DNA of 64,000 nucleotides from Nitrospinaceae bacterium (GTDB lineage Bacteria; Nitrospinota; Nitrospinia; Nitrospinales; JACRGP01), in contig JAJDBD010000059.1 of assembly GCA_029261575.1 (NCBI GenBank), forward strand, positions 16,182 to 80,181, written 5' to 3'. The stretch's first letter is position 1. Every line of letters starts with the position of its first letter. Under the pieces are notes generated by a model, which saw nothing but the letters and a program-made list of their open reading frames with translations, was not told the DNA's origin and did no database searches. The position numbers and the translations under genes are program-made. Below are positions 22,475 through 52,792 of the stretch, piece by piece.

Positions 22475-22663
22475 CCGGCGTACCGCCGGTGGTAACGGTT
22501 GGCGATTGAGAAATTTTTTACAATCCGGAATCCAACCCATCGATTTTTCGCTATTGTATTCGAGATGCAAATCCGCCGTGGTTTACGGCATTCACCCTAA
22601 ACGATGACTAGTCTGCCTCCAGGCGCTTGCCTGGCGCCTGCTGGCTCCGGCGCCTCGCCGGTT
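22475..22663. repeat. GC-rich modular intergenic repeat, copy B
   Basis: TGCCTCCAGGCGCTTGCC lies at 22614-22631 and CCGGCGCCTCGCCGGTT is shared with copy A. The central part (GGTTGGCGATTGAGAAATTTTTTACAATC...ATCGATTTTTCGCTATTGT) parallels 57801-57860 of copy C. Starts ATAACCGGC right at a stop codon, as copy A does. Confidence 0.75.
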
Positions 22664-23603: not shown

Positions 23604-23658
23604 TCAAAAATCCCCGAAAACAAAATTGCAAGGCGCGGATTATTTGGAGGAGTGTAAC

Positions 23659-32946: not shown

Positions 32947-33798
32947 TTAATCCAGGATGGTATTGTTCATGTTTGCCTGTTTGGTGATCGCCTTGGTGAT
33001 ATTGGCGTCGATGAGGTAGGCGTTTCTAAGGTTGGCTTTTGTGAAGTTGGCGCCGTGCAGGTTGGCTTCGAGAAGAAACGTGTTTTCCAGGTTGCATCCT
33101 TCGAAATTCGCGTAGGTTAGATCCACGCCTTCCAGATTGGTTCCGGAAAAATCGACTTCCTGCCCATGGCAATCTTTCAGTTCGCTCCCTGTCAGATTGG
33201 CGCTTGTGAGGTTGACCTTTTCCAGGGTGCATGAGTTCATGTCCGCGTACTTTAATACGGCCCCATGGAGATCGGCGTCGCTGATTTTGGCGAAACTAAG
33301 ATCCGTTCCTCTGGCGTTGACCCCCTTCCAGTCCGATTTGGAAATTTTCATTTCCTTCATATAGCAATACATCATCCGGGCGAAAGAGAAATCCCCGCCT
33401 TCAACGACGCAGGAAAAAAAACTGGAATGGTTCAGGGTGGCGCCCCGGAAATCGCACTTCTGGAACTGGGAGGCGTCGAAGCTTGCGTTGAGTATTTTTG
33501 CGTTTACAAAATTGCAATTTGTGAATGTGGCGTCTTCAAAACTGGATTCTTCCAGTTCCGCGTTGCTGAAGTTGATATTGGTCAAATGCGCATTTTTGAA
33601 GGATGACTTTTTTAAGTTGGCCTGGCTGAAGTTGACTTCGGTAAGATCCGAATCGTCCAGATTGGTTTCCTCCAGCGTTCCGTAGACAAAGGTGGTCCCC
33701 TTTAAACTGATTCCCTTGAGATCGTTGCCGCTGAGATTGATCCCGTCCTGGCAGTTGTTTTGCGCGGTGAGCCGAAGGACTTCGTCGATGTTAGACAT
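32947..33798 (-). CDS. pentapeptide-repeat protein
   Basis: 283 aa, almost entirely A(D/N)LxX pentapeptide repeats. ATG overlaps the upstream MotA-like stop by 8 nt (ATGTCTAA). Confidence 0.85.
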   Translation of the reverse strand: MSNIDEVLRLTAQNNCQDGINLSGNDLKGISLKGTTFVYGTLEETNLDDSDLTEVNFSQANLKKSSFKNAHLTNINFSNAELEESSFEDATFTNCNFVNAKILNASFDASQFQKCDFRGATLNHSSFFSCVVEGGDFSFARMMYCYMKEMKISKSDWKGVNARGTDLSFAKISDADLHGAVLKYADMNSCTLEKVNLTSANLTGSELKDCHGQEVDFSGTNLEGVDLTYANFEGCNLENTFLLEANLHGANFTKANLRNAYLIDANITKAITKQANMNNTILD

Positions 33799-34624
33799 TT
33801 CTATGTTTGTCCGGCGGCAGGAGGGCGTTCATGTTTCTTTGGATTTTCATGGGATTGATGCGGTCGTGAATTCCCATCACGCCGACCCGGATGGCTTTTA
33901 AAAGCGTGGCTTCGCTTTCTGTCCGGGCGTTCAATTTGGCGACGACCGGGGTGATGATCAGGTTGGCGAGCATCAACCCATAAAATGTGGTGATCAGGGC
34001 GGTGGCCAGGGAAGGGCCGATGCTGGAAGGGTCGGCAATCCGCATCAACATTTGAATCAAGCCGATCAAGGTGCCCGCCATGCCAAATACGGGAGCCTGC
34101 ACGGCCATGAACCTGAGGATTTTTTGCCCGGCGTTGTGACGTTCCACCATGGTGTTCAACTCGCGCTCCATGATTTCCTGGATTTCCCTGGCCTGGTATC
34201 CATCGACGATCATGACGATGCCGTTTTTCAAGTGCCGGTTGTTGAGAAGCCGTTCCTCCATTTCCAGTTGCTTCATTCCCCCGCTCCGGTACTTGGTCGC
34301 CAGGGTCATGATTTCGTCGATGTAATCGGCGGGTTGAAGAACGTCTGGTTTGAAGGCGTTGATGATGACCGGCACCATTCCAAGTATTTTTTTCGATGGA
34401 AAGGCGATGAGAGTGGTGGCTATAGTTCCCCCCATAACAATAAACGCGCTATTGAGATTGAGGAAGGTTTCGGAATCGCCGCCGCGAATGATTGCGATGC
34501 TGATTAATAGAATTCCCGAAGCAGCGCCGATGATGGTGCTGAGATCGACCCCGGACGCTTCTTTCGCGGGTTCGATGGACGCGGCTTTTGGGATCGCTTC
34601 GTTTTCTTTTACTGCGGTAGCCAT
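33791..34624 (-). CDS. MotA/PomA-type ion-channel (stator A) subunit
   Basis: 277 aa. Aligns by eye to PomA/MotA: IVDGYQAREIQ and GTLIGLIQMLMRIADPSSIGPSLATALITTFYGLMLANLIITPVVAKL. Confidence 0.85.
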   Translation of the reverse strand: MATAVKENEAIPKAASIEPAKEASGVDLSTIIGAASGILLISIAIIRGGDSETFLNLNSAFIVMGGTIATTLIAFPSKKILGMVPVIINAFKPDVLQPADYIDEIMTLATKYRSGGMKQLEMEERLLNNRHLKNGIVMIVDGYQAREIQEIMERELNTMVERHNAGQKILRFMAVQAPVFGMAGTLIGLIQMLMRIADPSSIGPSLATALITTFYGLMLANLIITPVVAKLNARTESEATLLKAIRVGVMGIHDRINPMKIQRNMNALLPPDKHRNV

Positions 34625-34642: not shown

Positions 34643-36718
34643 TTAACTGGCAAGTTTTTGAGCTTGGGCTTGCGCCTTGGACTTTAGGCTCATTTCAATA
34701 TAATCATGCAGCCAGGGAACCTCTAGTGTTTCTTTACGGCCGGAAGGAACGAAAACCTTTAATAAATTTTCATCCTCGATCTCAAGGTTTATTTTGGGAC
34801 CCAGCTCGTTGATGAATCTGGATATACAGTTTTGACCTGAAAATGTTTTACAAAAAAGCTCGCCCCAGGAAGTCAGATAAACGGGCGTTACGTTCAACGC
34901 AGCGCTCAGGCGGCGACGGAGAAACTCGTTGTAATCCTCCAGGGACTTGCAGTCGTTGATATTCCCAAGGGTTATATCCCTGGGAAGCGGATAACCAAAA
35001 TCCACGATCAAAAAAATCTTGCGGACCTCGGATTCGGCGAGAAGCTCTTCGTTGGAAATGGCCGCAATATTGATCTTCGTGAGAAATCTGGAGATTTGCT
35101 CCAACATCATGTGCAGGTCGACGTCCTTGATGGATTGTCTTTCCGCCCGCAACAGAATGGTGGTGTTGTTATTGTAAAGCCGGTTGAAACCGGCAAAGGC
35201 TATCAGAAAAGGCAACCCGGTCGCGTTCTGGATAATGTTTTCCTTGGGAACGTGCTCCAGGAAGGCGAGGGTTTTCCCCCGGATTAAAAACCAGTTGCCG
35301 CCTTCCCGGGGTTTTTCGTTGTCGAACAGGAAGGTCAATTCCCGCTCCGAACTTTTTCCGTCCACTAAAACAAATAAACATTCCACCTTGTGGGGCGCGG
35401 TGCGGTAGTAACTGAACAGTTTGCGTCCCAAAAGATGGGTGTCTCGGTCGGAAATCAAGCTTTCGCCGGGAGCGAGGGTTTTATTTGCTTCCGAGATTTT
35501 TTTGTAGGAATTCATCAGGATTTTATTCACCCGATTGCCCAAGCTCACTTTTTGCATTATTTGCCAGTTTTTATAATCGTTCAACTGTTCCAGCTTTTTG
35601 GCGGTCCATTCCCATTCGCGAATCATTGCGATCAGAGTTCGCTTGGTATGGAATTCGGATTTTTCATCCAGTTCTTCAGGAGCGATCTGGGTTCCGACTT
35701 TTAGATAAAACGCCGTTCGCAATGCGTCCACTTCGTTTTCGGATTTGGTTTCCTTGAAGTATTTTTCGACCCGAGCAAACAGCATGAGGTAGGGATCGAT
35801 GGTCAAATATTCTTCGCCGTTGAAAATTAAATTTTTGACCTGGTGGCACAGCAGATTCGATTTGGTTTGGCCGAACATGTATTCTTCGAGCAATCCCATT
35901 TTCATCAGGGTTTTGAAAGGGGACTGAAACGATTTGATCAAGGCCCAGATGGATCCGCCAAAAAATTCTCCCTGGGAAATATCGTCCACGTTCCCCATAT
36001 CGACAAATTCGTTGGGATTCAGAATGGATTGCCCGTTCTGGAGTTGATGGAGAAACTCGGCGTATTGCTCGTCGTTGGTTTCCACCGGAACGATCATCCA
36101 CAACGGGATTTTGCCGGCGGCGATGATGGCCGTGCGGTACATCTCCTCTTTTAATAATTTCGCGAGGGCGGAACCGGTGCTTTCGCTGTCGCTTTCCCCA
36201 AAAATGTTTTTTTTGACTTCCTCAATATCGTTGATAAAAAAATGGACCTCGATGACGAAAGTTTTCCACGCCCATTTTTCGATCAACATCAGCTTCTTTT
36301 TGAACAGCTCCATCCGTTCGGGAGAAATGGAATTTTTGTGGACCAATAACGTGTAATCGAGATCGGATTTTTGGGTCATCGCGATGGACCCCACGCTCCC
36401 CATCAGCAATACGGTATGAATGATAGGCTCCAGATTTTTGGGGCGGCTGGCAATGACGTCTGGAAACATGAATTCGCAGGCGACCTGGGATTCTTTGGTG
36501 AGATTGAAGTTGCCTATTCCGCAGGGAACGTCGCCCTCTACATAACCGGGGAAGCCTTCTTGATTGATATGCAACAACCGCGGGATCAAATAAAATATCC
36601 AGCGCTCTCCCGAGCGCAGGGTTTGAAACGTGCGGGTGAGTTTGAATCGATTGAACCTGTGGAAGGCCTGGCGATTTTCGAATAAAATATCCGTGGTTTC
36701 TGGCGCGGTTGTGGTCAT
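34643..36718 (-). CDS. class I (CyaA-type) adenylate cyclase homologue
   Basis: 691 aa. Colinear by eye with the E. coli CyaA catalytic region: LLHINQEGFPGYVEGDVPCGI, MGSVGSIAMTQKSDLDYTLLV (G-S...DxD), EEMYRTAIIAAGKIPLWMIVP, GEFFGGSIWALIKSFQSPFKTLMKMGLLEEY, DPYLMLFARVEKYF, FYLKV and NWQIMQKV. Confidence 0.8.
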   Translation of the reverse strand: MTTTAPETTDILFENRQAFHRFNRFKLTRTFQTLRSGERWIFYLIPRLLHINQEGFPGYVEGDVPCGIGNFNLTKESQVACEFMFPDVIASRPKNLEPIIHTVLLMGSVGSIAMTQKSDLDYTLLVHKNSISPERMELFKKKLMLIEKWAWKTFVIEVHFFINDIEEVKKNIFGESDSESTGSALAKLLKEEMYRTAIIAAGKIPLWMIVPVETNDEQYAEFLHQLQNGQSILNPNEFVDMGNVDDISQGEFFGGSIWALIKSFQSPFKTLMKMGLLEEYMFGQTKSNLLCHQVKNLIFNGEEYLTIDPYLMLFARVEKYFKETKSENEVDALRTAFYLKVGTQIAPEELDEKSEFHTKRTLIAMIREWEWTAKKLEQLNDYKNWQIMQKVSLGNRVNKILMNSYKKISEANKTLAPGESLISDRDTHLLGRKLFSYYRTAPHKVECLFVLVDGKSSERELTFLFDNEKPREGGNWFLIRGKTLAFLEHVPKENIIQNATGLPFLIAFAGFNRLYNNNTTILLRAERQSIKDVDLHMMLEQISRFLTKINIAAISNEELLAESEVRKIFLIVDFGYPLPRDITLGNINDCKSLEDYNEFLRRRLSAALNVTPVYLTSWGELFCKTFSGQNCISRFINELGPKINLEIEDENLLKVFVPSGRKETLEVPWLHDYIEMSLKSKAQAQAQKLAS

Positions 36719-36802: not shown

Positions 36803-38398
36803 TTACTTTTTAGTCGGGGCTTCGCCGCTGGGCGCCTGCCCGGCGGGTGGGGCCTTGTCTTTGGATAATTGTTTGCCTAACTGGCCTGCGCTTTCCTCTT
36901 CTTTGGCCACTTCCTTGTCTTTAAGGATTTTAATATCCACCCGACGGTTCAAGGCGCGGTTATCGTCCGAGTCGTTGGGTTTGAGGGGGCGGTATTCCCC
37001 GTATCCGGAGACCACTAATTGTTCCGGGCGAAAATTTAATTTCTCGATGATAACGCGGGCCACGCTGGAAGCCCTGGCGGACGACAATTCCCAATTGGAA
37101 GGGAATTGATCGTTTTTAATGGGAACGTTATCCGTGTGGCCTTCGACCAAAGCCTGTTTCACTCCCTCTTGCATTTGACCCCGGATGGCGTCCAGAATGA
37201 TCTGGTCGGCGCCTTCCAGGAGGTCCGCGCTTCCCGGTCCGAACAGGTCGGAGTTCTGCAACCTTATCAGAATGGTCCGGGTGTCGCTTCGCACCAGGGA
37301 TTCCGGATCGACATTGTCCTTGACCAGTTCGCGCACCCGGTCCAGCATGGCCACTTCCTGGCCGGTCAACCAGACGTTGGATACCTCAATGCGCACTTTT
37401 TTGGACTGGAAAGAAGACAGGGCCTCGGCGAACTTGTCTACGTTTAATTTCGAAACCGTGTACAGCAAAACAAAAATTACCAGGAGCAGGGTGATCATGT
37501 CCGAATAGGTGATGAGGAAATTTTCCAGTCCCGAAGAGAACTCCGCCGTTTGAGCGCCCCGTCCTTCAACGTTCATTCTGGAGTCGAGCCGGCCGGCGGA
37601 GTCTTTTTCATCGGCCATGGACAATTTCATTTCCAGTTCCGTATTCGACTGAGCCAGTTTTTCCATTTCCAATTCCATTTTCCTGCGTTCTTCTTCCAGA
37701 ATGTCCAGATCCTCGCGCAATTCTAAAATAATTTCCGAAGGGAGCATGCCCTCCTGGCCCGGAGCCGCGTCTCCATACAGCATTTTTTCGTAGGATTCTA
37801 TGACGTTGTCTTTTTCGCGTATCAGTTCTTCGTAGTCCACAAGAGATTGGCCGGGATTTCTCCTCAAATTATCCAACTCCTGTCTCAATTCCTTGTTTCT
37901 ATCCTTAAGGACGTCCGTTTCCTCTCCAAGTTTTTTTAGTTTTTTTAGCTCTTTTAAAAGGACCTTTTTTTCACGGTTTTGTTTGGAGCGGATTTTTTCG
38001 TTTTTCTCAATTTCTGCTTTGAGGGCGGCCTCGTTCTTTTTGAGTTCTTGTAATTTTTTTAAAAGTTGCGGATCGGTAGAATAATCCAGGTCCTCGCCGT
38101 CTCCTTCCTTGCCGGACTTCCCCATTTTGGCATGCCTTGCGGCCCTTGCGGCCCAGGCGGCTTGTTGGGCTTCCTTGATTTCCTCCTCTTTGCCTTTGAT
38201 CAGTACCTGGAGTTCCGCCATCTTTTTTTGATTGAGCTTGACGACGTCTTTTATCTTCTTTTCCGTTTTTTCAATGATCCGGGTCTGGTTCTTGAGCTTC
38301 TGATTGGTGATTTTTAGTTGCTCTTTAACCAGTTGTAGGGTTTCGGGATTTTGCATGGTATGATCCGGTTTTTGTTGATTTATCGGTTTAAACGGCAA
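36803..38398 (-). CDS. MotB/OmpA-family protein with long N-terminal coiled coil
   Basis: 531 aa. ~290 aa of K/E-rich coiled-coil-like sequence comes first. Next is a MotB TM with the conserved Asp (ITYSDMITLLLVIFVLL), then an OmpA-like peptidoglycan-binding domain (VEGHTDNVP, NWELSSARA, NRRVDIKI). The start is uncertain (TTG 38398 or ATG 38356). Confidence 0.8.
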   Translation of the reverse strand: MPFKPINQQKPDHTMQNPETLQLVKEQLKITNQKLKNQTRIIEKTEKKIKDVVKLNQKKMAELQVLIKGKEEEIKEAQQAAWAARAARHAKMGKSGKEGDGEDLDYSTDPQLLKKLQELKKNEAALKAEIEKNEKIRSKQNREKKVLLKELKKLKKLGEETDVLKDRNKELRQELDNLRRNPGQSLVDYEELIREKDNVIESYEKMLYGDAAPGQEGMLPSEIILELREDLDILEEERRKMELEMEKLAQSNTELEMKLSMADEKDSAGRLDSRMNVEGRGAQTAEFSSGLENFLITYSDMITLLLVIFVLLYTVSKLNVDKFAEALSSFQSKKVRIEVSNVWLTGQEVAMLDRVRELVKDNVDPESLVRSDTRTILIRLQNSDLFGPGSADLLEGADQIILDAIRGQMQEGVKQALVEGHTDNVPIKNDQFPSNWELSSARASSVARVIIEKLNFRPEQLVVSGYGEYRPLKPNDSDDNRALNRRVDIKILKDKEVAKEEESAGQLGKQLSKDKAPPAGQAPSGEAPTKK

Positions 38399-38592
38399 AA
38401 AAGCTTATAATAAAATGACTTTAAACGATTTAAAATCAACGAAATGTGGTTTTTTTGCTTTACCTAGATTTTATGCAACTCTCTTGGTGCACGTCAATAT
38501 CCCTGTAAGTTTAAATTTTTACAGGGTTTCGTCTTTTCTGTCGCCTGGTTGGACGGACCCATAGGGGCGTTGATTCCAGCGGGAAAACTTTT

Positions 38593-39828
38593 ATGAGCAA
38601 TGGAGTTGAAACCTTTTCCAAGCGCCGGATTGGAGCGGTTTTTTTGTTGGGGTTTTCTTCCGGCCTGCCTTTGGCCCTGACCGGTGGAACTCTTCAAGCC
38701 TGGATGACCGTGGAGGGGGTCGATCTTAAAACCATCGGTATTTTTACCCTCGTTGGCTTGCCTTACACGCTAAAGTTTCTATGGTCCCCTTTGATGGACC
38801 GCTTTGTTCCTCCCTGGTTAGGACGGCGACGGGGTTGGTTGATTCTGACACAAATTGCCTTGATGGGCCTTATTTTTCTAATCTCCCAGGCGTCGCCGCG
38901 GGAGGCCCCCATGCTTTTGGCCGTTTTGGCTCTAGGGTTGGCTTTCAGTTCCGCGTCTCAGGATATCGTGGTTGACGCCTATCGGGCGGATATTCTGAAA
39001 GAGAAAGAGCGCGGACTGGGCGCCGCGACGTCCGTGACGGGTTACCGAATCGCCATGCTGGTTTCCGGCGCGCTGGCCCTGGTTTTATCCGAGTCAATTG
39101 GTTGGCAGACAACCTACCTGTTGATGGCCGTTTTGATGGTCATCGGAATGGGCGCGTCTTTAACGGGTCCTGAGCCGGAAGATAAAATTGTCCCTCCCCG
39201 CACACTTCAGGAAGCCATAACCCATCCGCTGACTGAGTTTTTTAGTCGCAAAGCGGCCTGGGGATTTTTGGCGCTTATTATTCTATACAAAATTGGCGAC
39301 GCTTTTGCCGGCAGTCTGACCACGGCTTTTTTGATTCGCGGGGTCGGGTTTTCGGTGGGTGAAGTTGGGACCGTAAACAAAGGGCTGGGGCTTTTGGCCA
39401 CCATTGTGGGCGCCTTGTTTGGCGGCGCGCTGATGGCGCGGTTAGGATTGTATCGTTCTTTGATGTTGTACGGGTGCCTGCAAGCGGTTTCCAATCTTTC
39501 CTTCATGGGACTCGCGTGGTTGGGGAAAAATTACTACATGATGATTTTTACCATCGCGTTTGAAAATATAGCCGGGGGCATGGGGACGGCGGCTTTTGTG
39601 GCTTTTTTGATGACGCTTTGCGACCATCGTTATACGGCCACTCAATTCGCGTTGCTTTCCGCGCTGGCTTCTTTAGGCCGGGTGTTTGTCGGTCCGCCCT
39701 CCGGCTTCCTGGCTGATGAATTGGGATGGATTACATTTTTCTTCATCACCTTCCTTGCGGCCTTGCCCGGATTGTTTCTTCTTTGGCGCATGAAATCGAG
39801 AATAGAGGGGCTTAAAGCGCACGGATGA
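38593..39828 (+). CDS. ampG: AmpG-family muropeptide MFS permease
   Basis: 411 aa. FLLGFSSGLPLALTGGTLQAWMT and PYTLKFLWSPLMDR. Confidence 0.85.
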   Translation: MSNGVETFSKRRIGAVFLLGFSSGLPLALTGGTLQAWMTVEGVDLKTIGIFTLVGLPYTLKFLWSPLMDRFVPPWLGRRRGWLILTQIALMGLIFLISQASPREAPMLLAVLALGLAFSSASQDIVVDAYRADILKEKERGLGAATSVTGYRIAMLVSGALALVLSESIGWQTTYLLMAVLMVIGMGASLTGPEPEDKIVPPRTLQEAITHPLTEFFSRKAAWGFLALIILYKIGDAFAGSLTTAFLIRGVGFSVGEVGTVNKGLGLLATIVGALFGGALMARLGLYRSLMLYGCLQAVSNLSFMGLAWLGKNYYMMIFTIAFENIAGGMGTAAFVAFLMTLCDHRYTATQFALLSALASLGRVFVGPPSGFLADELGWITFFFITFLAALPGLFLLWRMKSRIEGLKAHG

Positions 39829-40484
39829 CCCGGTTTCTTTATTTGCACGGTTTCGCCTCCAGTCCCGGTTCTTTCAAAGCTTCAAGATTTAAAAAAGAGT
39901 TTTCCAAAAGAGGAATCGATCTGATCGTTCCCGAACTGGACGGGGGGAATTTTGAAAATTTGACGGTATCCAGTCAGATAAAAATCGCCCGGCAATGCCT
40001 GGATCAATTTCCGGAAGACAGGTATGGCTTGATTGGGAGCAGTATGGGCGGCTATTTGGCGGCTTTGCTGGCGCAGTCGAACCCCAACGTTGCGGCGATG
40101 TACCTCATGGCTCCGGGGTTTAATTTCACGGCCCGATGGGCGGAAAAGGTTCGTTGCGAGTTCGGGGAAGACGGGGCGATTCCCGGCTTGATAAAGGTAT
40201 TTCATTATCGGTACAATGATTTTAGATGGTTGAGTACTGGTTTGTTCGCCGACGCTGCGGCTTGGGATCGGCTTGAATTGGACCGGAGTTTGCCCTGCAA
40301 AATTGTCCACGGGGTTCACGACGATACGGTGGATATTGAGGAATCGCGAAGGTTTGCCGCGACCCGGCCCTGGGTCCGGTTGGTAGAGTTGGATTCCGAC
40401 CACACCCTTATGTCGCGTATCGGCTGGATCGTTGAGGATTGTTTTGAATTTTTTTCCGAATTTCATTTGATCAAACAGGTATGA
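39825..40484 (+). CDS. YqiA-like alpha/beta esterase
   Basis: 219 aa. FLYLHGFASSPGSFKA and GSSMGGYLA. ATGA overlap with ampG. Confidence 0.7.
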   Translation: MTRFLYLHGFASSPGSFKASRFKKEFSKRGIDLIVPELDGGNFENLTVSSQIKIARQCLDQFPEDRYGLIGSSMGGYLAALLAQSNPNVAAMYLMAPGFNFTARWAEKVRCEFGEDGAIPGLIKVFHYRYNDFRWLSTGLFADAAAWDRLELDRSLPCKIVHGVHDDTVDIEESRRFAATRPWVRLVELDSDHTLMSRIGWIVEDCFEFFSEFHLIKQV

Positions 40485-41080
40485 GTTTGGAAGCGGAGAG
40501 TTTCAAGCGATTGAGGTTGGCGGTTCGTTTGGCCCGGAGAGGCCACGCGGGACAATTCCGTAAAGGCCGCCTGAAAGAGATTTATTACTGCCATCCAAAA
40601 CGGGTATGTAAGGCTTATTTGAAGTACAAATTTAACTCGCTCGACGGCGCCATTGCCTGTCTTTGCCACGACTTGGTGGAGGATACCGAGTTGAGTTTAC
40701 CTGATATTGAGCGTGAGTTTGGACCCACGGTAGAATCTCTGGTGGACTATTTGACCAAACCTCCGGAGCTTCCCAGCCTGGAATACGCCAGCTTGATGAA
40801 CGGCTGGAGCCTGGAGGCGAAAAAAATAAAGCTCTGCGATATTGAGGATAATATTATCAGCTCCCGGCAAATCTCGCCGGACCGCAGGGAAAGGATGCTG
40901 GGAAAATGGCTGGCGTTCCTTTCTAACCTGAACGAGATCTCCGTCGGTTCCTGCGAAAAAACTTCGGAGTTTTTGGATAAAAAGCGTAAGGTTTGCGAGC
41001 TTTGCCGCGACGAACTGTCAACATGTAATCGACTCCAGGAGAAATCGGCTCTTTTGCAAAACAATCAGTCCACGCCATGA
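40481..41080 (+). CDS. HD-domain protein, SpoT/Mesh1-type (p)ppGpp hydrolase-like
   Basis: 199 aa. ARRGHAGQFRK...YYCHP...CLCHDLVEDT...FGPTVESLVDYLTK matches the SpoT hydrolase (HD_4) pattern. ATGA overlaps on both sides. Confidence 0.65.
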   Translation: MSLEAESFKRLRLAVRLARRGHAGQFRKGRLKEIYYCHPKRVCKAYLKYKFNSLDGAIACLCHDLVEDTELSLPDIEREFGPTVESLVDYLTKPPELPSLEYASLMNGWSLEAKKIKLCDIEDNIISSRQISPDRRERMLGKWLAFLSNLNEISVGSCEKTSEFLDKKRKVCELCRDELSTCNRLQEKSALLQNNQSTP

Positions 41081-41763
41081 AACAGTCCATTTTAATTATT
41101 GACGACGATCTGGATTTATTGAATTTGTTGAAAACCAAATTTGAAAAAGACGGATTCGATATCTTGACCGCGCTCGACGGCGAGGAGGGGTTGAGTCTGG
41201 CCCAAAAAAAGCCGCCGGACCTGATCGTTCTCGACGTCAAGATGCCGGGGCGTTCGGGTTTGGACGTCTGCAAAAATTTAAAGGAAGCGGGGAGCACCAA
41301 AACCGTTCCGGTGATCATGTTGACGTCCAAGAACGAAGAGATGGATCGCATATTGGGTTTGGAACTCGGCGCCGACGATTACCTTGCCAAGCCGTTCAGT
41401 TACCGGGAATTGTTGCTTCGAATCAAAAGTATATTGAGGCGGACGGCCTCCAAGCCGTTAAAACAGAAGCGGGTCGTTAAACTGGGAGAGTTGACGGTTG
41501 ATAACGTCAATCACGAGGTTTGGGTCGGCAAAGAGAAAATTTTTTTAACGCTCACAGAATTTAACCTGCTCGCCACCCTGATGGAAAGTCCGGGGCAGGT
41601 GAAGACGCGCGAATTTCTTTTGGAGGAAATCTGGGATTATAACGACGGGGTTTATTCGCGAACCGTCGACACCCATGTCCAAAGGTTGCGTACCAAATTG
41701 CTAGACGTCGGACACTCCATAGAAACCATCCGCGGTGTGGGATATCGGTTTAATAAGGCCTGA
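41077..41763 (+). CDS. OmpR/PhoB-family response regulator
   Basis: 228 aa. Receiver domain (ILIIDDD...LIVLDVKMPG...KP) plus a winged-helix C-terminus (TVDTHVQRLRTKL...RGVGYRF). No histidine kinase gene adjacent. Confidence 0.9.
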   Translation: MKQSILIIDDDLDLLNLLKTKFEKDGFDILTALDGEEGLSLAQKKPPDLIVLDVKMPGRSGLDVCKNLKEAGSTKTVPVIMLTSKNEEMDRILGLELGADDYLAKPFSYRELLLRIKSILRRTASKPLKQKRVVKLGELTVDNVNHEVWVGKEKIFLTLTEFNLLATLMESPGQVKTREFLLEEIWDYNDGVYSRTVDTHVQRLRTKLLDVGHSIETIRGVGYRFNKA

Positions 41764-42437: not shown

Positions 42438-43202
42438 TCAAACCGCTCCGAGAGCGGTTTTAAGGGTCCAACCCTTTTTGTCTTCCTCCAATTGGATTTG
42501 GTTCCATTGGTCTTTCTCTCCCAGAATGGATACCACCGCTCCTTCATGCAATCGAAACAAAGTGACATGACCCTTTCCAAAGGAAGATTTAACCTCCACA
42601 AGCTTGGTTAACACCACCCCCCGTTGATTCCTACTCCCGAAGTCCAGGTAAGACATGGCTCCGTTGGAAATCAGGCCCGCCAACGTCAAAGCCAGCGCGG
42701 TTTTTCGCAGGATATCGAAAACGCGGTTGCGGTATATCAGCCACAGGGTCAGACTCGTCCAAAAAAGAAAATTGGCGAGCGCCAACGCCAGTAAATTTTC
42801 ATTACGGTTTATAGAGTCCAGCCAAAAAAACAAGTTGCGCAATATGCCGGAGCGTTTTGGCGCGATTTTATCCTCCGTGTTTTGTGTCGCATAATTCAAA
42901 TTGGCCTGCAAGTCCGCGTTTCTGGGGAGAAGTTGTTGAGCGCGTAAATAATTTAAAATGCTCAACCCTTTTTTTCCTTGTCGATAATAAGCGTTGCCCA
43001 GATTATAAAAAAGATAGCCGTTTTGTACGCCTTGCCCGACGAGGCTTTCATAAATTTTCGCGGCTTCCTGGAAGCGTTGGCTTTCGTACAAATCGTTGGC
43101 TCGGGCGACGTCTCTTTGGGTATCCAGGGCCTCGCAATGAACGGGAGCCAATGCAATTAAAAAGAATAAAACCATGATTTGCCAAAGCGGTCGCGGATTC
43201 AT
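42438..43202 (-). CDS. batE: BatE-like TPR + SH3b protein
   Basis: 254 aa. Signal peptide, TPR (ANDLYESQRFQEAAKIYE...GNAYYRQG), TM segments, and a C-terminal SH3-like GAVVSILGEKDQWNQIQLEEDKKGW. Confidence 0.65.
   Translation of the reverse strand: MNPRPLWQIMVLFFLIALAPVHCEALDTQRDVARANDLYESQRFQEAAKIYESLVGQGVQNGYLFYNLGNAYYRQGKKGLSILNYLRAQQLLPRNADLQANLNYATQNTEDKIAPKRSGILRNLFFWLDSINRNENLLALALANFLFWTSLTLWLIYRNRVFDILRKTALALTLAGLISNGAMSYLDFGSRNQRGVVLTKLVEVKSSFGKGHVTLFRLHEGAVVSILGEKDQWNQIQLEEDKKGWTLKTALGAV
42440..42462 (+). terminator. hairpin terminator between convergent genes
   Basis: AAACCGCTC-CGA-GAGCGGTTT (9-bp stem) followed by TTA. It overlaps the last codons of the minus-strand batE-like gene. 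Confidence 0.4.
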
Positions 43203-44998
43203 AATTTTTTTTCCAGTTTTTCCAAAACTTCAAAAGACTCTTCGATCAACTTATCGGAAGCCACGGGCCGTTGCGCTCCTCCCCGGTATTGAATTTCCTC
43301 GCATTTTTCCAGCAAAGCCCGCATTGATTTTGCGGATTCTTCCGGGAAACGTTTTTCCCTTAACTTGAGTTCCACCTCCACGGGAGTGAAAGCGGCGCCG
43401 GGCAAATTCAGTTTGTCGCCGACATATTCCCGAAGGGCTTTTGAAATTTCGACGATGGATTCTCCGTTGCCTGCGGATTGGGTTTTCTGGAGACGTTTCT
43501 TGGCGGACCTGTAAGCGTTCTTGTTGCGCGTAAAGGCAAGGTCGTATTTTAATCTGTCCTTGTGGCGAACCCACCAGGCGGTTCCACAAAATAAAAATAC
43601 CGGCGCCAAAAAAGCCGCCCAAAGATAATTCCGCCGGGGGCCTGTCAGGGCCTGATTGCTAAAATCGGACAGTCGGGTGTGAATGGGAAGGATGTCTTCT
43701 CCTAAAATTTTCACCTCGGGCGCCTGGGGCGCGATGGCCGACTGGGGAGCCTGAACAATTTTCAATTTTTCCCTGGCGGGGGCCTGTGTGATTTTTAAAG
43801 AGATTTTTTTTGTTTGCCTCGTGATGTACTTTCCGGCGGCGGGGTCGAAATAGGACAGGGAGATCGGGGGGACTTGTAAATCGCCGTCCCGGAGAGGCAC
43901 CAACGCCCATTTAAAAGTTTTTCCGCCCGCAAGGTTTTTACCGTCGATCCATTTTTTGAAATCCGGCTGGTCCGGATAAACTTTGAATTGGTCCAGGACG
44001 TCCAGATTGGGAGTGGGAATATCGTAAACGTTTCCCTTTCCGGATATCGTCAGGGTCAGCGTGGTGGAGTCGCCAAACTCCAACTCATGCTTTCCCAGTC
44101 TCGCCGAAATGGCGAACTGGCCCACCAGATTGGAAAATCCCGCGGGTTTATCTTGTTCGGGAAGCGGCAGAGCTTCTACTTGTATCGTCGACGTTCGCAG
44201 GGTTTTATGCGCGCTGCTGGTTCCCCCAAAAAACGGATCGTTAAAAAACCGGTCGAAAAAAGGGTCGGAATGGGATCGGGATTTATCCTGAATCAGGATA
44301 TCGATATCCACCCGAGACGGAGGGATTTCCAGGACGCCGACCTTTGAAGGAAATAAAGCCTTGGAGACTTCGTAAACGTTGTATTGGAGTCCGTCCACCA
44401 CCTGGGAATATTGCTTGTCCTGGCCCAGGGGTTCCTCGCGGAAACCGTCGAAGGTTTGCTTCAGGTTGATGTTTCTCGCGTTGACCCGGCGGAACAGTTT
44501 GAAAGTGTAAATCGCCTGTTCGTTGACGAATAATTTGTTTTTCGAAATGGACGCCTCGGCAAACACCAGTCTTCCCGAGCGGGATTGTGCGGCAACTTGT
44601 TTTACCGTAACAATAATGGGTTTAGTGGAATAAATTTTTCCGTCCAATTCCAGCCTGGCCGCGCCAATTTCCAGTTGCCCCGCTTTTTGGGGAACCAGGT
44701 TGTAGGTGAAGACGATGGATTTGGAAACCTGGGAGTTGATTACCTGGACCTGAGTCTGGGTTCCCGTGGAACGGATATCAAAATCTTTCAGGTCGGGAAG
44801 AGCGGGGGAGGGGGCGGTCTTTACTCCGTTGACGGCGATGGAAAGATTGACCGAGTCTTCAAGAGAGATTTCCGTTTTGTCTACCGAGGCCGTTAACCCG
44901 ATTTCCTTGGCATAAACCTGGGCAGCGGGGAGGGCGGCCGTCAAAAATAAGCCGCAGAGGATATAAGCGCAATATCTCGATATCAAATAGAATCTCAT
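43199..44998 (-). CDS. batD: BatD-like (oxygen-tolerance) protein
   Basis: 599 aa. Signal peptide, a long beta-rich ectodomain, a late TM (YLWAAFLAPVFLFCGTAWWV). 4-nt overlap with batE-like. Confidence 0.65.
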   Translation of the reverse strand: MRFYLISRYCAYILCGLFLTAALPAAQVYAKEIGLTASVDKTEISLEDSVNLSIAVNGVKTAPSPALPDLKDFDIRSTGTQTQVQVINSQVSKSIVFTYNLVPQKAGQLEIGAARLELDGKIYSTKPIIVTVKQVAAQSRSGRLVFAEASISKNKLFVNEQAIYTFKLFRRVNARNINLKQTFDGFREEPLGQDKQYSQVVDGLQYNVYEVSKALFPSKVGVLEIPPSRVDIDILIQDKSRSHSDPFFDRFFNDPFFGGTSSAHKTLRTSTIQVEALPLPEQDKPAGFSNLVGQFAISARLGKHELEFGDSTTLTLTISGKGNVYDIPTPNLDVLDQFKVYPDQPDFKKWIDGKNLAGGKTFKWALVPLRDGDLQVPPISLSYFDPAAGKYITRQTKKISLKITQAPAREKLKIVQAPQSAIAPQAPEVKILGEDILPIHTRLSDFSNQALTGPRRNYLWAAFLAPVFLFCGTAWWVRHKDRLKYDLAFTRNKNAYRSAKKRLQKTQSAGNGESIVEISKALREYVGDKLNLPGAAFTPVEVELKLREKRFPEESAKSMRALLEKCEEIQYRGGAQRPVASDKLIEESFEVLEKLEKKL

Positions 44999-45001
44999 CG
45001 C

Positions 45002-45841
45002 TTACCAATCGTTTCCCTGATATGCGGGGGACTCGAAAATTTCTTCGAGAGCTTGTTTGCGGTTGAATTTTTTTGGGGCCTCTTCCAACGAACGCAACCA
45101 TTGCTCCGCCTCTTGCTTGCTCATGGATTCTTTGGGACGCGCCTGGGCGGTTTGCGTTTCTTCCCGGCGGGACTCTTTTTTGTCCTGGGGGTTTTGCGAA
45201 GGTTGGTTTTTCGCGTTCTCTTCGTCCGGCTTTTTGTCCTGCGCCTTATCCTTGTCTTTTTTCTTTTTGTCGTCGTCGTTTTGTTTTTTATCCTTCGGGT
45301 CGGAGGAGGCCGAATCTTTTTTTTGTTCCTGCTCCTGTTCTTTTTTCTTGAGTTGGAGCCGGGCGTATTCGAGATTGAACTTGGCGTCCATGTCTGTAGG
45401 ATCGAGTTTGAGGGCCTCTTTATAGGAGGCAATGGATTCCTCAAGCTTTCCCAGCCGATACAGGGCGTTGCCGGAATTGTAAAGCGCGTTCTGTTTTAAT
45501 TTGGATTCCCCGGAGGCGGCTTGGCTGTAACCGGAAAGCGCTTCTTGAAATTTACCCTGTTTATAAAAACTGTTGCCCAGGTTGTAGTCGACGCCGGGAT
45601 TATCGGGTTGGTCCTCTTTGGCGGATTTAAAGGATTGAACGGCGGAGGAATAATTTTGCGCGTTGTAGTCTTCGATTCCCTGACGAGCAGGATTGTCAAA
45701 AAGCTGGGCGTTGCCGGAGGGCGGAATAAGCAGGGCAAAACCATTTAAGACAAAACAAAATATATATACTGGAAAAAAGCGCATAAACTTTGTGGAGGGT
45801 TGTTGGATAAAATGGATGAATGCGGCGGTTTTGGAAATCAC
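45002..45841 (-). CDS. batC: BatC-like TPR protein with K/D/E-rich tail
   Basis: 279 aa. TPRs (NLGNSFYKQGKFQEAL, NSGNALYRLGKLEESI) followed by a charged low-complexity tail. Confidence 0.6.
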   Translation of the reverse strand: MISKTAAFIHFIQQPSTKFMRFFPVYIFCFVLNGFALLIPPSGNAQLFDNPARQGIEDYNAQNYSSAVQSFKSAKEDQPDNPGVDYNLGNSFYKQGKFQEALSGYSQAASGESKLKQNALYNSGNALYRLGKLEESIASYKEALKLDPTDMDAKFNLEYARLQLKKKEQEQEQKKDSASSDPKDKKQNDDDKKKKDKDKAQDKKPDEENAKNQPSQNPQDKKESRREETQTAQARPKESMSKQEAEQWLRSLEEAPKKFNRKQALEEIFESPAYQGNDW

Positions 45842-45983
45842 GTATAGAATTTATCTATTTTACCACACTGTTTACCCGCGAATGATTTTGATAATATATT
45901 AATCTAAATGGATTTTTCCCCGCAAAAATTTTCTTTTCTACCCGGGGGGTTGGGAAGCTCGATCAATCTGGAGGCGGTATTGC

Positions 45984-47144
45984 ATGCCCGGCAGGCTTCT
46001 GAAATATTTTTTAATCTGGTTTGTATTGATTTTTGTCCTCTCCCTTACGGTTGAAAACTGGACGCGAATCAACCTGTTTATTTTTGGTCGTCCGGACCCG
46101 CAGGATTTGGCTTTCAACCAGCCGGGCAATCTTTCCGGAAACCGGCCCCTCGTCGTTTCCCGGGACGAGCAGATCAATATGGACGTGTTTGAAAAGGTCC
46201 ATGAAGCCGTTGTCAATATCGTCGCCACGACGCTCACCGTAAATTTTTGGATGCAGGTGATTCCCCAGCAGGGCCAGGGGTCGGGTTTCATCATCGACGA
46301 CAGGGGATTCATCCTGACCAATAATCACGTCGTGGCCGACGCGCAAAAAATCACCGTCACCTTCGGGAACGGAAAAAAAGTTTCGGCTTCATTGGTTGGG
46401 CGCGACCCGTCCAACGACCTGGCGGTGATCAAAGTATCCAAATCCAAAGTAGAGGCCGTCGCCCCCTTGGGAAATTCCGACGAAGTCCGCGTTGGACAAA
46501 AAGCCATCGCCATTGGCAATCCCTTTGGCTTGTCGCAAACTCTCACCACCGGCACGGTGAGCGCCTTGAACCGGGACCTTAAAGAAGAATCCGGCGCTGT
46601 TTTGACCGGTCTGATCCAAACCGACGCGGCCATCAATCCGGGAAACTCCGGCGGACCTTTGCTCAATTCCAACGGCGAAGTCATCGGCGTCAACACGGCC
46701 ATATTCAGCTTGTCCGGCGGGTATCAGGGAATCGGGTTCGCCATTCCGGTGAACCGCGCCCGGGAAGTGGCCACGCAACTCATCGCCAACGGAAGGTTTG
46801 CGCAACCCTGGTTGGGGATTTCCGGAATGGCCCTGAACCGGGAATTTGCCGACGTCCTGCAAATATCAAGCGACGAGGGAATCCTCGTTGTCGGGGTCTA
46901 TCCCGAAAGCCCGGCCCACAACGCCGGACTGCGCGGGGGCGACCGGGAAATGATTGTCGGCAATTACCGCGTGCCCGTCGGTGGAGACGTGGTCCTGAGT
47001 CTCAACGGCAAAAAAATGTTGGACATGGACGACCTGATTCGGGAGGTCAAGCGTCACCAGGTCGGCGACGCCCTCAACCTGGAAATTTTAAGAAAAAACC
47101 GCTCCGCTATTGTATCCGTCGTGCTAGAGGAAAAACCCTCCTGA
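45984..47144 (+). CDS. HtrA/DegS-like S1C serine protease with PDZ domain
   Basis: 386 aa. N-terminal TM, catalytic TNNHVV / DLAVIKV / GNSGGPL, and a C-terminal PDZ. Confidence 0.85.
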   Translation: MPGRLLKYFLIWFVLIFVLSLTVENWTRINLFIFGRPDPQDLAFNQPGNLSGNRPLVVSRDEQINMDVFEKVHEAVVNIVATTLTVNFWMQVIPQQGQGSGFIIDDRGFILTNNHVVADAQKITVTFGNGKKVSASLVGRDPSNDLAVIKVSKSKVEAVAPLGNSDEVRVGQKAIAIGNPFGLSQTLTTGTVSALNRDLKEESGAVLTGLIQTDAAINPGNSGGPLLNSNGEVIGVNTAIFSLSGGYQGIGFAIPVNRAREVATQLIANGRFAQPWLGISGMALNREFADVLQISSDEGILVVGVYPESPAHNAGLRGGDREMIVGNYRVPVGGDVVLSLNGKKMLDMDDLIREVKRHQVGDALNLEILRKNRSAIVSVVLEEKPS

Positions 47145-47231
47145 TCGTCCCGCAGGGCTACCGAAAAACCGGAAAACCGGGGAACAAGGTTTTTCCTGCA
47201 ACGAAAAACCCTTTTCCCCGAGAAAACTTTT

Positions 47232-47933
47232 TTACCGCCGGTCTCCCATAAGCCTCAACATCATCAGGAACAAATTGATGAAATCCAGATACAAGGTCAG
47301 CGCGCCGGAGATGGCTTCTTTATGGTCCTCGTCGGTGCCTTCATTGCCCAGGATATTCATTTCCTTGATTTTTTGCGTGTCGTAAGCGGTGAGGCCGACA
47401 AAGATCAATACTCCGGCATAGGTGATGATCCAGTGCATCGCCGAGCTTTGCAGGAACATATTGACCACGGAGGCCAGGATGATACCGATCAGTCCCATGA
47501 ACAGGAAACTTCCCCAGGAGGTCAGGTCCTTTTTGGTCGTGTAGCCGTAAAGGCTCATCGCCCCAAAGGTGCCTGCCGTGACCAGAAAAGCGCTGGTGAT
47601 GGACGACGCCGTGTACACCAGAAAAATGAACGACAGCGTCAGGCCGTTTAGTCCCGAATAGAGGATGAAAACGCCGGTCGCCTGACTGGCGGTCATTTTT
47701 TCGATCCAACCGGCAAGATAAAACACCAGTCCCAATTCCACAATGATCAATCCGAAAAACAGGATTTGATTTCCAAAAATCAGGTTGGTCATGGTTTCGC
47801 TGTTGGCAACCCAAAAGGCCATGAAGCCGGTGGTGGCGAGTCCAATGCCCATCCAGTTATAAACTTTTACCATGAACCGCTGCTGCTCGGCGGCGATGGT
47901 TTCAGCGCTACTAGCGTACATAGGGTTTTGCAT
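47232..47933 (-). CDS. Bax-inhibitor-1/YccA-family membrane protein
   Basis: 233 aa, seven TM. C-terminal ALTLYLDFINLFLMMLRL. Confidence 0.8.
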   Translation of the reverse strand: MQNPMYASSAETIAAEQQRFMVKVYNWMGIGLATTGFMAFWVANSETMTNLIFGNQILFFGLIIVELGLVFYLAGWIEKMTASQATGVFILYSGLNGLTLSFIFLVYTASSITSAFLVTAGTFGAMSLYGYTTKKDLTSWGSFLFMGLIGIILASVVNMFLQSSAMHWIITYAGVLIFVGLTAYDTQKIKEMNILGNEGTDEDHKEAISGALTLYLDFINLFLMMLRLMGDRR

Positions 47934-48012
47934 CGTTAAATCCTTCTAAATTATCGGTTAATTTTTGTTGTCCTTGTTCAAATAAAATCCAAATATTGTC
48001 TTGTCAAGAAGA

Positions 48013-49215: not shown

Positions 49216-49344
49216 TTAGGAGCCATATATTTAAAAAACTACATTAATAAAGCTGATTTCGTCCATTTACATACTAGGGACTTTCTCTTGTCTCTTCAAG
49301 GTGATAAAAACCGCATTGGAAATTTAAGTTTCCATGTCCGTTTA

Positions 49345-50328: not shown

Positions 50329-50330
50329 GA

Positions 50331-52348: not shown

Positions 52349-52791
52349 TCAATCAGGGATTGATCGATTTGTTGGCGGCAAGTTTGTTTGTGAGTCTGGA
52401 AAGCGGAATCGTCTTTAATTTTTTCGTCGGCAAGCTCCGCCTTGAACAGCCAGACCATAGCTTCCCGGCAATCATGCAAATCAATATTCAGTTCGGCCAG
52501 TTTAATGTAAAGCGGAACGCTTTGGCTGGCGGGTAACAGGGCGGACTGCAAATAAGTTTCGTATTGTTTGATCGCTTTGTCTTTCAGTCCCGCCTGTTCC
52601 AGTTTTTCCGCAAGGGGCAACAGTCGCTCCTTATCCGCCGGAGCCTGGGCGCCGTCCGATGAAACTTTTAGAATCAATTTCCCCGCAAGCGCGCCCAGCC
52701 CGCCCAGTAAGGCCAGGGTCAGCAGGGCCACGATAACTTTTATAATAATACCGCTTCGGTCCTTTGGCGGTTCTGGATGGGAAGTTTTCAT
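52345..52791 (-). CDS. membrane-anchored hypothetical protein of the Bat cluster
   Basis: 148 aa. One TM (IIIKVIVALLTLALLGGLGALAG) and a helical C-terminal part. Tight operon spacing. Confidence 0.5.
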   Translation of the reverse strand: MKTSHPEPPKDRSGIIIKVIVALLTLALLGGLGALAGKLILKVSSDGAQAPADKERLLPLAEKLEQAGLKDKAIKQYETYLQSALLPASQSVPLYIKLAELNIDLHDCREAMVWLFKAELADEKIKDDSAFQTHKQTCRQQIDQSLIE

Positions 52792-52792
52792 G

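Follow-up and report, generated by a model that had tools for sequence, protein, structure and literature searches.

A MotB-type stator subunit of Nitrospinota with a long, conserved, predicted coiled-coil N-terminus encoded beside a class-I adenylate cyclase

Background

The B subunits of ion-driven 5:2 motors are normally short on their cytoplasmic side. In a preliminary description of a 64,000-nucleotide stretch of DNA (hereafter the window) from a Nitrospinaceae bacterium (GCA_029261575.1, contig JAJDBD010000059.1), it was noted that the MotB-type open reading frame at positions 36803-38398 appeared to carry a cytoplasmic coiled coil of about 290 residues, and that in Zorya such a coiled coil is found on the other subunit, the MotA-like ZorA. 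We therefore asked whether this N-terminal extension is a genuine part of the protein, to which kind of motor the protein belongs, and what its genomic context suggests about its role.

Results

The long N-terminus is a genuine part of a MotB-type protein

The open reading frame at 36803-38398 (minus strand) encodes 531 aa from a TTG and contains no in-frame stop. Pfam identified MotB_plug at residues 292-332 (49.7 bits, cut-off 24) and OmpA at residues 385-485 (62.3 bits, cut-off 27.2), and the only TM-like segment lies at approximately 294-316. As stated in the preliminary description, 291 residues of this reading frame precede the segment beginning ENFL. However, the first 14 codons are gapped in 98% of 118 orthologues, and the 100%-identical database protein is 517 aa long. 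The real start is therefore the ATG at 38356, which leaves 277 residues before ENFL. The features of the gene, in 517-aa numbering, and of its neighbours are as follows.

36803-38356, minus strand: CDS of the long MotB (517 aa; stop codon 36803-36805)
38357-38398, minus strand: 14 codons upstream of the true start, probably not translated
37541-38356, minus strand: cytoplasmic N-terminal module (residues 1-272), four long predicted helices, no known domain
38123-38347, minus strand: predicted helix 1 (residues 4-78), with the near-invariant N-terminal motif (L/I)Q.(V/I)KEQLK
37859-38071, minus strand: predicted helix 2 (residues 96-166), with the conserved LLKELKRLR block
37775-37855, minus strand: predicted helix 3 (residues 168-194), with the conserved EKDxxIxxYEKMLYG motif
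37580-37738, minus strand: predicted helix 4 (residues 207-259), preceded by the conserved G..EGMLPSEII turn
37541-37579, minus strand: low-confidence linker (residues 260-272; pLDDT below 50) between the coiled-coil module and the TM helix
37448-37540, minus strand: TM helix (residues 273-303) with the invariant channel Asp286 (codon GAC at 37499-37501)
37406-37441, minus strand: plug helix (residues 306-317)
36944-37246, minus strand: periplasmic OmpA-like peptidoglycan-binding domain
36806-36913, minus strand: variable Pro/Ala/Lys/Glu-rich C-terminal tail (residues 482-517)
34643-36718, minus strand: class-I adenylate cyclase (691 aa), 84 nt downstream of the long motB
33791-34624, minus strand: PomA/MotA-like A subunit (277 aa), 18 nt after cyaA
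32947-33798, minus strand: pentapeptide-repeat protein (283 aa), whose start overlaps the motA stop by 8 nt
38468-38497, minus strand: sigma-70-like promoter match (TTGACG, 18 nt spacer, TAAAAT) upstream of the long motB

The promoter is a consensus match only (10 of 12 positions), and the number of such sites in the region is no higher than in shuffled sequences.

The N-terminal region is rich in K (14.4%), E (14.4%) and L (12.4%), and AF2 predicted its four helices with pLDDT of about 85-93. When hydrophobicity was averaged over the alignment, a 3.5-residue periodicity was found with z=5.7 in helix 1 and z=9.5 in helix 2, values reached by 0 of 500 shuffles, whereas the signal was weaker in helices 3 and 4 (z about 2.7-2.9) and absent in control helices. 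The pTM of the monomer models was only 0.23-0.34 (0.23 for a model of the N-terminus alone), and therefore no conclusion about packing was drawn. The module is co-linear in more than 100 full-length orthologues (44-53% identity, over 90% coverage) across Nitrospinota, including Nitrospina gracilis, and is under purifying selection, with a pN/pS of 0.11 compared with 0.07 for the core. In 103 orthologues the distance from the EKD..YE motif to the channel Asp is fixed at 103-112 residues. The Pro/Ala/Lys-rich tail after the OmpA domain, which was also noted in the preliminary description, is real, but it is poorly conserved, has pLDDT below 50 and evolves nearly neutrally (pN/pS 0.64).

No known domain was recognized in the N-terminal module. 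Pfam returned only sub-threshold coiled-coil noise (TMCO5, GAS, STI1), a PDB sequence search matched only residues 290 onward, Foldseek with the full model hit only OmpA domains, and Foldseek with the N-terminal model returned zero hits. Furthermore, neither a survey of stator diversity (PMC12505986) nor our other literature searches, which covered open-access papers only, revealed a characterized family with this architecture, and the literature searches revealed no operon combining a stator with an adenylate cyclase.

The core of the protein and its partner are of the flagellar type

The remainder of the protein has the hallmarks of a stator B subunit. Asp286, within TYSDM, aligns with TFSD/TFAD of the 6ysf MotB and PomB and is invariant in 109 sequences, the plug aligns with the MotB plug of 6ysf/8ucs and was predicted by AF2 as a helix, and the best PDB matches of the core are flagellar MotB/PomB/MotS, with Foldseek E about 1e-11 to the MotS/PomB/MotB periplasmic domains. 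What is different is the cytoplasmic N-terminus. The first TM-like (hydrophobic) window starts at a median of about residue 285 in orthologues, while the aligned segment in solved MotB/PomB chains starts at residues 14-17, and 277 residues precede ENFL here instead of roughly 10-40.

The A subunit matches Pfam MotA_ExbB, and its best PDB matches are Clostridium sporogenes MotA (6ysf/8ucs) and Vibrio PomA (8brd), with E about 1e-43. The residues aligned with PomA R88/E96/E97, P151 and T158/T185/T186 are retained, and the Arg is conserved in both A clades; R88 and E96/E97 correspond to FliG-contact charges (PMC7564593). In comparison with the stator units PomAB, MotPS and C. sporogenes MotAB (8brd, 8zyv, 6ysf, 8ucs, 9ljk), however, this A subunit has an extra N-terminus of about 25 residues, and scores against the curated PomA/MotA/MotB equivalog models fall below their cut-offs.

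Gene order, a second paralogous pair and related forms

A scan of a genome collection with the single protein found only one close relative, in the Nitrospinaceae MAG OFTM324 (90% identity), and the neighbours were tabulated instead from a metagenome scan with an alignment of the N-terminus only. The class-I adenylate cyclase gene was adjacent to the long motB in 16/16 loci, the A subunit gene was present in 11/11 contigs that extend far enough, and the pentapeptide-repeat gene (Pfam Pentapeptide, 2.4e-59) in 7/7. Synteny with an AmpG-like muropeptide permease is also conserved. The order motB-cyaA-motA differs from that reported for MotAB homologs, in which B lies consistently directly downstream of A (PMC12505986). 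The cyclase contains Adenyl_cycl_N and Adenylate_cycl domains (Pfam, 168 and 233 bits) and matches an NCBIfam class I model with E 4e-131, although all NCBIfam equivalog scores are below their cut-offs. Its nucleotidyltransferase GS...SDLD motif, GSVGSIAMTQKSDLDY, is conserved in 4/4 orthologues examined. The full-length enterobacterial-type C-terminal regulatory domain is lacking, as the Pfam match ends at model position 443 of 601.

Nitrospinota carry a second, paralogous pair, encoded in the order MotA2, long MotB, PilZ, in which the A-B order is followed and the PilZ has intact RxxxR and DxSxxG motifs. A gene encoding a cNMP-binding GGDEF-EAL protein was found upstream of the paralogue in one locus only and was absent from the others. 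The motifs KEQL, LLKELKR and EKD..YE are conserved between both paralogues. Furthermore, two related metagenomic forms (P0127 and P0128) carry a REC domain N-terminal to the homologous coiled-coil module, pair with an A subunit of the type found in the cyaA-linked operon (A1) and sit beside REC-HD-GYP or PAS-kinase genes; the taxonomy of these loci, and of a tandem-MotB locus, was not determined.

Discussion

These results confirm that the extension noted in the preliminary description is real, and they support its interpretation, including the contrast with Zorya. In Zorya (PMC11946911; 8vvn), a MotAB-like 5:2 core also carries a very long cytoplasmic coiled coil and is encoded with accessory cytoplasmic proteins, but there the coiled coil is a pentameric C-terminal tail of the rotating A subunit, whereas here it is the N-terminus of B, and the A subunit is a short PomA-like protein with no tail. 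The idea that a static axle is extended into the cytoplasm remains an inference in the absence of a multimer model.

With moderate confidence, we propose that the gene encodes the B subunit of a PomAB/MotPS-type 5:2 ion-driven stator unit, in which PomA-like A subunits surround a B dimer anchored to peptidoglycan. In contrast to the characterized MotB, PomB, ExbD, TolR and ZorB proteins, its cytoplasmic N-terminus has grown into a conserved module of about 270 residues, predicted as a four-helix coiled coil, which is joined to the channel-forming TM helix by a short flexible linker. Because the B dimer is the non-rotating part, the module would emerge axially beneath the A pentamer as a stationary arm, although whether two chains can exit through the cytoplasmic domain of the A pentamer was not modelled. 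This arm may be a regulatory and docking element that couples the state of the channel or stator (plugged or open, engaged or idle) to cyclic-nucleotide signalling. The likely partner in this operon is the co-encoded cyclase, possibly together with the translationally coupled pentapeptide-repeat protein, while in the paralogous operon it would be a c-di-GMP-binding PilZ protein, and in related forms the input would be a fused receiver domain. However, there is no direct evidence of contact between the arm and CyaA, the pentapeptide-repeat protein or PilZ, the dimeric coiled-coil geometry and the direction of signal flow are inferred, and conserved gene order could reflect co-regulation only. 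The motifs shared by both paralogues also argue for a common function, such as binding of the A subunit or of a shared motor component, rather than for partner-specific docking.

There is precedent for several elements of this proposal. GFP fused to the MotB N-terminus is tolerated but increases proton-channel activity, and it has been proposed that the cytoplasmic tail couples gating to the MotA-FliG interaction (PMC7564593), although that is an artificial globular tag on a short natural tail rather than a natural, conserved module. Flagellar load, stators and cAMP have been linked in P. aeruginosa (PMC6855561). PilZ-type regulators such as YcgR/MotI and FlgX of Campylobacter (PMC11725899) act on the cytoplasmic face of stator units, but the known examples bind MotA or the rotor of canonical stators, and no case is known in which the B subunit supplies a dedicated cytoplasmic arm or in which an adenylate cyclase is the operon partner.

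Alternatively, both long-MotB pairs could be ordinary flagellar stators of a dual-stator system, in which the coiled coil is a strut that tethers or spaces stator units around the C-ring, as a cytoplasmic counterpart of periplasmic scaffolds such as the T-ring or PflAB, and the cyclase and PilZ are merely co-regulated. This is possible but appears less likely. It would be consistent with the sharing of the module and its most conserved motifs by both paralogues, with the FliG-contact charges kept by the A subunits, with the flagella and chemotaxis genes reported in the Nitrospinae core genome (PMC5029188), and with the stabilization of the stator ring by FlgX through the cytoplasmic side of the stator units (PMC11725899). 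However, the interleaved order motB-cyaA-motA-pentapeptide is invariant across lineages at only 44-53% identity, the REC fusions point to signal input rather than a passive strut, and no flagellar genes were found near either operon. It is also conceivable, though doubtful, that the cyaA-linked pair is a non-flagellar 5:2 motor, recruited as a sensor of ion-motive force, envelope or peptidoglycan, or to power another process, with the B arm and the cyclase as its output. The atypical gene order, the extra N-terminus of the A subunit, the synteny with the AmpG-like permease, the scores below the equivalog cut-offs and the lack of motility of cultured Nitrospina (PMC5029188) favor this view. In contrast, the A subunit is closest to structurally characterized flagellar stators and keeps the residues aligned with PomA R88/E96/E97, the plug and peptidoglycan-binding domain typical of flagellar stators are intact, and the nearest canonical-length relatives of the B core are Firmicutes flagellar MotBs, a canonical short MotB in Nitrospinota not having been established.

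Other explanations are very unlikely. A Zorya-like or other anti-phage defense module was suggested by PADLOC ZorB models (best E 2e-22) and by a four-gene cassette with a MotAB core and two accessory genes, but the ZorB hits cover only the generic TM/OmpA core shared with all MotB proteins, no neighbour matched ZorA, ZorC, ZorD or ZorE, and the cassette sits in fixed core-genome synteny across the phylum rather than in a variable island. The long form of the T6SS protein TssL/DotU has a similar overall topology, with an N-terminal cytoplasmic helical domain, one TM helix and a periplasmic OmpA-like domain. However, NCBIfam DotU and type_VI_ompA matches cover only residues 301-501 and are far below their cut-offs, no DotU domain was found in the N-terminus, the TM helix carries the MotB Asp and plug, the partner is a MotA, and there are no T6SS genes nearby. 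Finally, although the longest reading frame starts at a TTG 14 codons too early, an artefact of assembly or annotation (a fused reading frame, a frameshift or a wrong start) is refuted by the same architecture in more than 100 independent assemblies, including complete Nitrospina genomes, and by the purifying selection on the N-terminus.

A more speculative and rather improbable possibility is that the four-gene cassette is a signalling device based on a rotary motor, in which the peptidoglycan-anchored B dimer projects a stationary coiled-coil shaft beneath the rotating PomA-like pentamer and holds or regulates the cyclase there, possibly with the pentapeptide beta-helix riding on the A ring. 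Ion flow, stator engagement or mechanical load would then be converted directly into cAMP, and conversely, cyclase, REC or PilZ inputs on the shaft could gate the channel, which would make the N-terminus of the B subunit a general signal port of 5:2 motors.

The organisms concerned are the dominant marine nitrite oxidizers, whose motility and signalling are essentially unstudied, and they offer a natural system for testing the proposal that the MotB N-terminus gates the channel and for testing how stators feed into second-messenger sensing of surface or load. The 5:2 ion-driven motors (MotAB, ExbBD, TolQR, GldLM, ZorAB) are currently understood to transmit work through the rotating A pentamer or through the periplasmic part of B, and the cytoplasmic end of B has been treated as a short, disordered tail. 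Here that end is a large, conserved, phylum-wide module, predicted to be a coiled coil and encoded alongside cAMP, c-di-GMP or phosphorelay components, and if it is functional, the stationary axle can also serve as a cytoplasmic signalling or gating port.

Anatomy of the MotB-type protein

The minus-strand ORF at 36803-38398, which encodes 531 aa when read from a TTG, is uninterrupted. Pfam places MotB_plug at residues 292-332 and OmpA at residues 385-485, both well above their gathering scores, and the only TM-like segment lies at about residues 294-316. The count of 291 residues before ENFLITYSDM in the preliminary description is therefore correct for that ORF. However, an alignment with 118 full-length orthologues showed that the first 14 codons are absent in 98% of them, and the identical database protein is 517 aa. 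The true start is therefore the ATG at 38356, which leaves 277 cytoplasmic residues, and the 517-aa numbering is used from here on.

The region preceding the TM helix is rich in K, E and L (14.4%, 14.4% and 12.4%, respectively). AlphaFold2, run on a 109-sequence alignment, predicted the following arrangement, with pLDDT of about 85-93 for the four long helices:

Residues 4-78: predicted helix 1
Residues 79-95: disordered loop
Residues 96-166: predicted helix 2
Residues 168-194: predicted helix 3
Residues 207-259: predicted helix 4
Residues 260-272: low-confidence linker leading into the TM helix
Residues 273-303: TM helix
Residues 306-317: plug helix, followed by the OmpA domain

Alignment-averaged hydrophobicity showed a 3.5-residue period with z=5.7 for helix 1 and z=9.5 for helix 2, values that were reached by none of 500 shuffles. 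The signal was weaker in helices 3 and 4, and it was absent in the TM helix and in an OmpA helix, which were used as controls. The description of the region as a coiled coil is therefore justified, at least for helices 1 and 2. The Pro/Ala/Lys-rich C-terminal tail, which had also been noted in the preliminary description, exists but is variable and evolves almost neutrally.

Conservation of the N-terminal region

A database search returned more than 100 proteins of 500-580 aa at 44-53% identity and over 90% coverage, and every hit that carries an organism name is from Nitrospinota, including Nitrospina gracilis. The closest named genome, and the only named relative reached by the genome-collection scan, is the Nitrospinaceae MAG OFTM324, at 90% identity. 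In these orthologues the TM-like segment begins at residue 264-320, with a median of about 285. Conserved blocks occur throughout the N-terminus, namely (L/I)Q.(V/I)KEQLK at the extreme N-terminus, LLKELKRLR in helix 2, EKDxxIxxYEKMLYG....EGMLPSEII spanning helices 3 and 4, and the EFSxGLExFLITYSDM entry into the membrane. Furthermore, the distance from the EKD..YE motif to the channel Asp is fixed at 103-112 residues in 103 orthologues, and length variation is concentrated in the loop between helices 1 and 2. When the gene was compared with its 90%-identical relative, pN/pS was 0.11 for the N-terminal module, 0.07 for the TM/plug/OmpA core and 0.64 for the tail. A frameshift, a fused ORF or a far-downstream start is effectively excluded.

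Genomic context

The gene heads a four-gene minus-strand operon, which is organized as follows:

36803-38356, minus strand: motB-long (the coding sequence starting at the ATG at 38356)
34643-36718, minus strand: class-I adenylate cyclase of 691 aa, after 84 nt (Pfam Adenyl_cycl_N + Adenylate_cycl; NCBIfam class I AC, E 4e-131)
33791-34624, minus strand: MotA/PomA-like A subunit of 277 aa, after 18 nt
Minus strand, overlapping the A subunit gene by 8 nt: pentapeptide-repeat protein of 283 aa

The same order is present in N. gracilis and in a Nitrospinae CG11 genome. When 16 loci were tabulated (three from earlier look-ups, OFTM324, and 12 from a metagenome scan seeded with an N-terminus-only alignment), CyaA was found to follow motB-long in 16/16 loci, the A subunit in 11/11 contigs long enough to show it, and the pentapeptide gene in 7/7. 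The cyclase keeps the GSxGS...KSDLDY nucleotidyltransferase motif, but it is a short form lacking the end of the enterobacterial regulatory region, and no solved structure matches it by sequence. At 55-63% identity across the phylum, it is better conserved than the MotB (44-53%).

The four-gene block is flanked by a divergent AmpG-like MFS gene and a convergent FGE-sulfatase gene. The window has no flagellar genes, and it is a housekeeping region carrying tRNA synthetases, lgt, a MoxR/Bat block and trpEGD. Features of the window include the following:

38593-41763, plus strand: divergently transcribed operon of AmpG-like MFS permease, UPF0227 alpha/beta hydrolase, HD_4 phosphohydrolase and OmpR-type response regulator
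42438-54796, minus strand: MoxR (AAA_3)-DUF58-VWA-BatA...BatD/TPR "aerotolerance" block, with an AAA_16/BrxC-like ATPase gene (48013-49215), a Bax1-I gene and a plus-strand trypsin-like/PDZ protease gene (45984-47144) inserted within it
22662-25668, minus strand: adjacent Na+/Ca2+ exchanger and Kef-type Na+/H+ exchanger (with TrkA-N/C domains) genes
20705-22474, plus strand: 589-aa protein combining an N-terminal bactofilin domain with a long TPR array, an unusual cytoskeletal fusion

The divergent operon keeps its position next to motB-long in N. gracilis, whereas the CG11 genomes lack the HD_4 gene, and most metagenome loci conserve at least the MFS gene. A block equivalent to the MoxR/Bat block lies upstream of the cassette in N. 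gracilis.

A paralogue and a wider family

An exhaustive representative search found a second tier of full-length matches, 465-604 aa in length and 27-36% identical, which aligned from about query residue 15 to 495. Most of these turned out to be a Nitrospinota paralogue, for example the proteins of N. gracilis (492 aa) and N. watsonii (493 aa). This paralogue always lies in an operon of MotA2 (about 257-260 aa), a long MotB (about 490 aa), PilZ and a protein of ~210 aa with no Pfam match, as seen at L008:9215-12499 (the N. gracilis locus) and also at the loci L006, L007, L025, L026 and L093. The PilZ start overlaps the motB end, all PilZ copies begin with MFWKKK or LFWKKK, and the PilZ proteins keep the RxxxR and DxSxxG c-di-GMP-binding motifs. 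Motifs shared by both paralogues (E12-Q13-L14, L133/E136/R139, E181-K182, Y189-E190 and E223) show that the modules are homologous and not merely similar in composition. In one lineage only (L006:3146-5263), a cNMP-binding-PAS-GGDEF-EAL protein is encoded immediately upstream of the motA of this second operon. This protein is a possible cAMP-to-c-di-GMP bridge between the two stator operons, but it is not conserved in the other loci.

Two further representatives, P0127 and P0128, carry a receiver (REC) domain N-terminal to the homologous coiled-coil region, followed by MotB_plug and OmpA, and they pair with an A subunit 55-58% identical to the one in this window. The REC-fused MotB-like proteins (583 and 604 aa) are encoded at the loci L005:8001-9752 and L092:3156-4970, where the A1-type MotA is encoded convergently and the flanking genes encode a PAS hybrid histidine kinase (L005) or are REC-HD-GYP-like (L092). 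Another locus, L009:65-4215, has two tandem long MotB-like genes (524 and 516 aa), of which the second has MotB_plug but no OmpA domain, followed by one A1-type MotA, and this could be a heterodimeric B pair. The taxonomic origin of these last loci is unknown. Overall, B subunits with a long cytoplasmic helical module form a family, whose members are repeatedly associated with cAMP, c-di-GMP or phosphorelay components.

Type of motor

The best solved relatives of the A subunit are flagellar, namely C. sporogenes MotA (6ysf, 8ucs; E 2e-43) and Vibrio PomA (8brd; E 2e-42). In the alignments, the A subunit keeps the Arg and Glu-Glu aligned with PomA R88 and E96/E97, which are the FliG-contact charges (equivalents of E. 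coli R90/E98; PMC7564593), as well as the prolines and the Thr residues aligned with PomA T158/T185/T186. The PomA-type Thr residues, together with the Na+/Ca2+ and Kef-type Na+/H+ exchanger genes in the window, suggest sodium-based energetics. The B core is closest to C. sporogenes MotB, PomB and MotS, its nearest canonical-length relatives are Firmicutes MotBs, and Asp286 is invariant. PADLOC matched ZorB models only through the generic core and found nothing for the A subunit or the other two genes, and NCBIfam DotU/TssL models matched only the TM-OmpA part. This is therefore a PomAB/MotPS-type unit, and not a Zorya, ExbBD/TolQR or T6SS component. However, the scores against the curated flagellar equivalogs are all below their cut-offs, and the gene order departs from the reported A-then-B rule (PMC12505986), and we therefore do not regard it as an orthodox member. 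In addition, the A subunit of the cassette and its A1-clade relatives carry an extra cytoplasmic N-terminal extension of ~25 residues before TM1, which PomA, the paralogue-2 MotA and solved MotAs lack. The Nitrospinae core genome is reported to encode flagella and chemotaxis, although motility has never been seen in culture (PMC5029188).

Proposed function of the N-terminal module

In 5:2 motors, the A pentamer rotates around a B dimer that is fixed to peptidoglycan (PMC9389320; PMC12704724). Because the OmpA domain must be periplasmic and there is a single TM helix, we infer that the 272-residue module is cytoplasmic and belongs to the non-rotating part. To remain compatible with rotation, it would have to leave along the axis beneath the A ring, with the ~13-residue linker and the conserved pre-TM segment threading the cytoplasmic vestibule. 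We propose, with no more than moderate confidence, that the module is a stationary regulatory and docking arm. The module is connected at fixed spacing to the helix that carries the ion-binding Asp, and even an artificial GFP on the MotB N-terminus alters channel gating while leaving the motor functional (PMC7564593). Furthermore, evolution has repeatedly placed signalling parts either on the module (REC) or immediately beside it in the operon, such as the class-I cyclase here, PilZ in the paralogue, and HD-GYP and kinases in the REC forms. Under this proposal, either the stator state is converted to cAMP, or the state of the cyclase, PilZ or REC controls the stator. A functional link between flagellar load, stators and cAMP has precedent in P. 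aeruginosa (PMC6855561). The pentapeptide-repeat protein is translationally coupled to the A subunit and is thus likely a stoichiometric partner.

Alternatively, the module could be a purely structural strut for a dual flagellar stator system, which is favoured by the motifs shared between the paralogues, but the invariant interleaved cyclase and the REC fusions weaken this possibility, and we consider it the less likely explanation. It is also possible, though we regard it as somewhat more doubtful still, that the cassette encodes a non-flagellar sensor or motor, as the atypical gene order, the extended A N-terminus, the AmpG synteny and the sub-threshold equivalog scores would suggest, while the retained FliG-contact residues speak against it. 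A defence system is effectively excluded.

The proteins are present in databases only as "OmpA family protein" or "chemotaxis protein MotB". Neither a stator B subunit with a long cytoplasmic coiled coil nor a stator operon containing an adenylate cyclase was found to be described, either in the stator-diversity survey (PMC12505986), which classifies A-subunit appendages and not B-subunit ones, or in our other searches of the literature, which covered open-access papers only. The core machine is a familiar 5:2 stator, whereas the cytoplasmic module on the axle subunit and its second-messenger operon partners are, as far as these searches reach, new.
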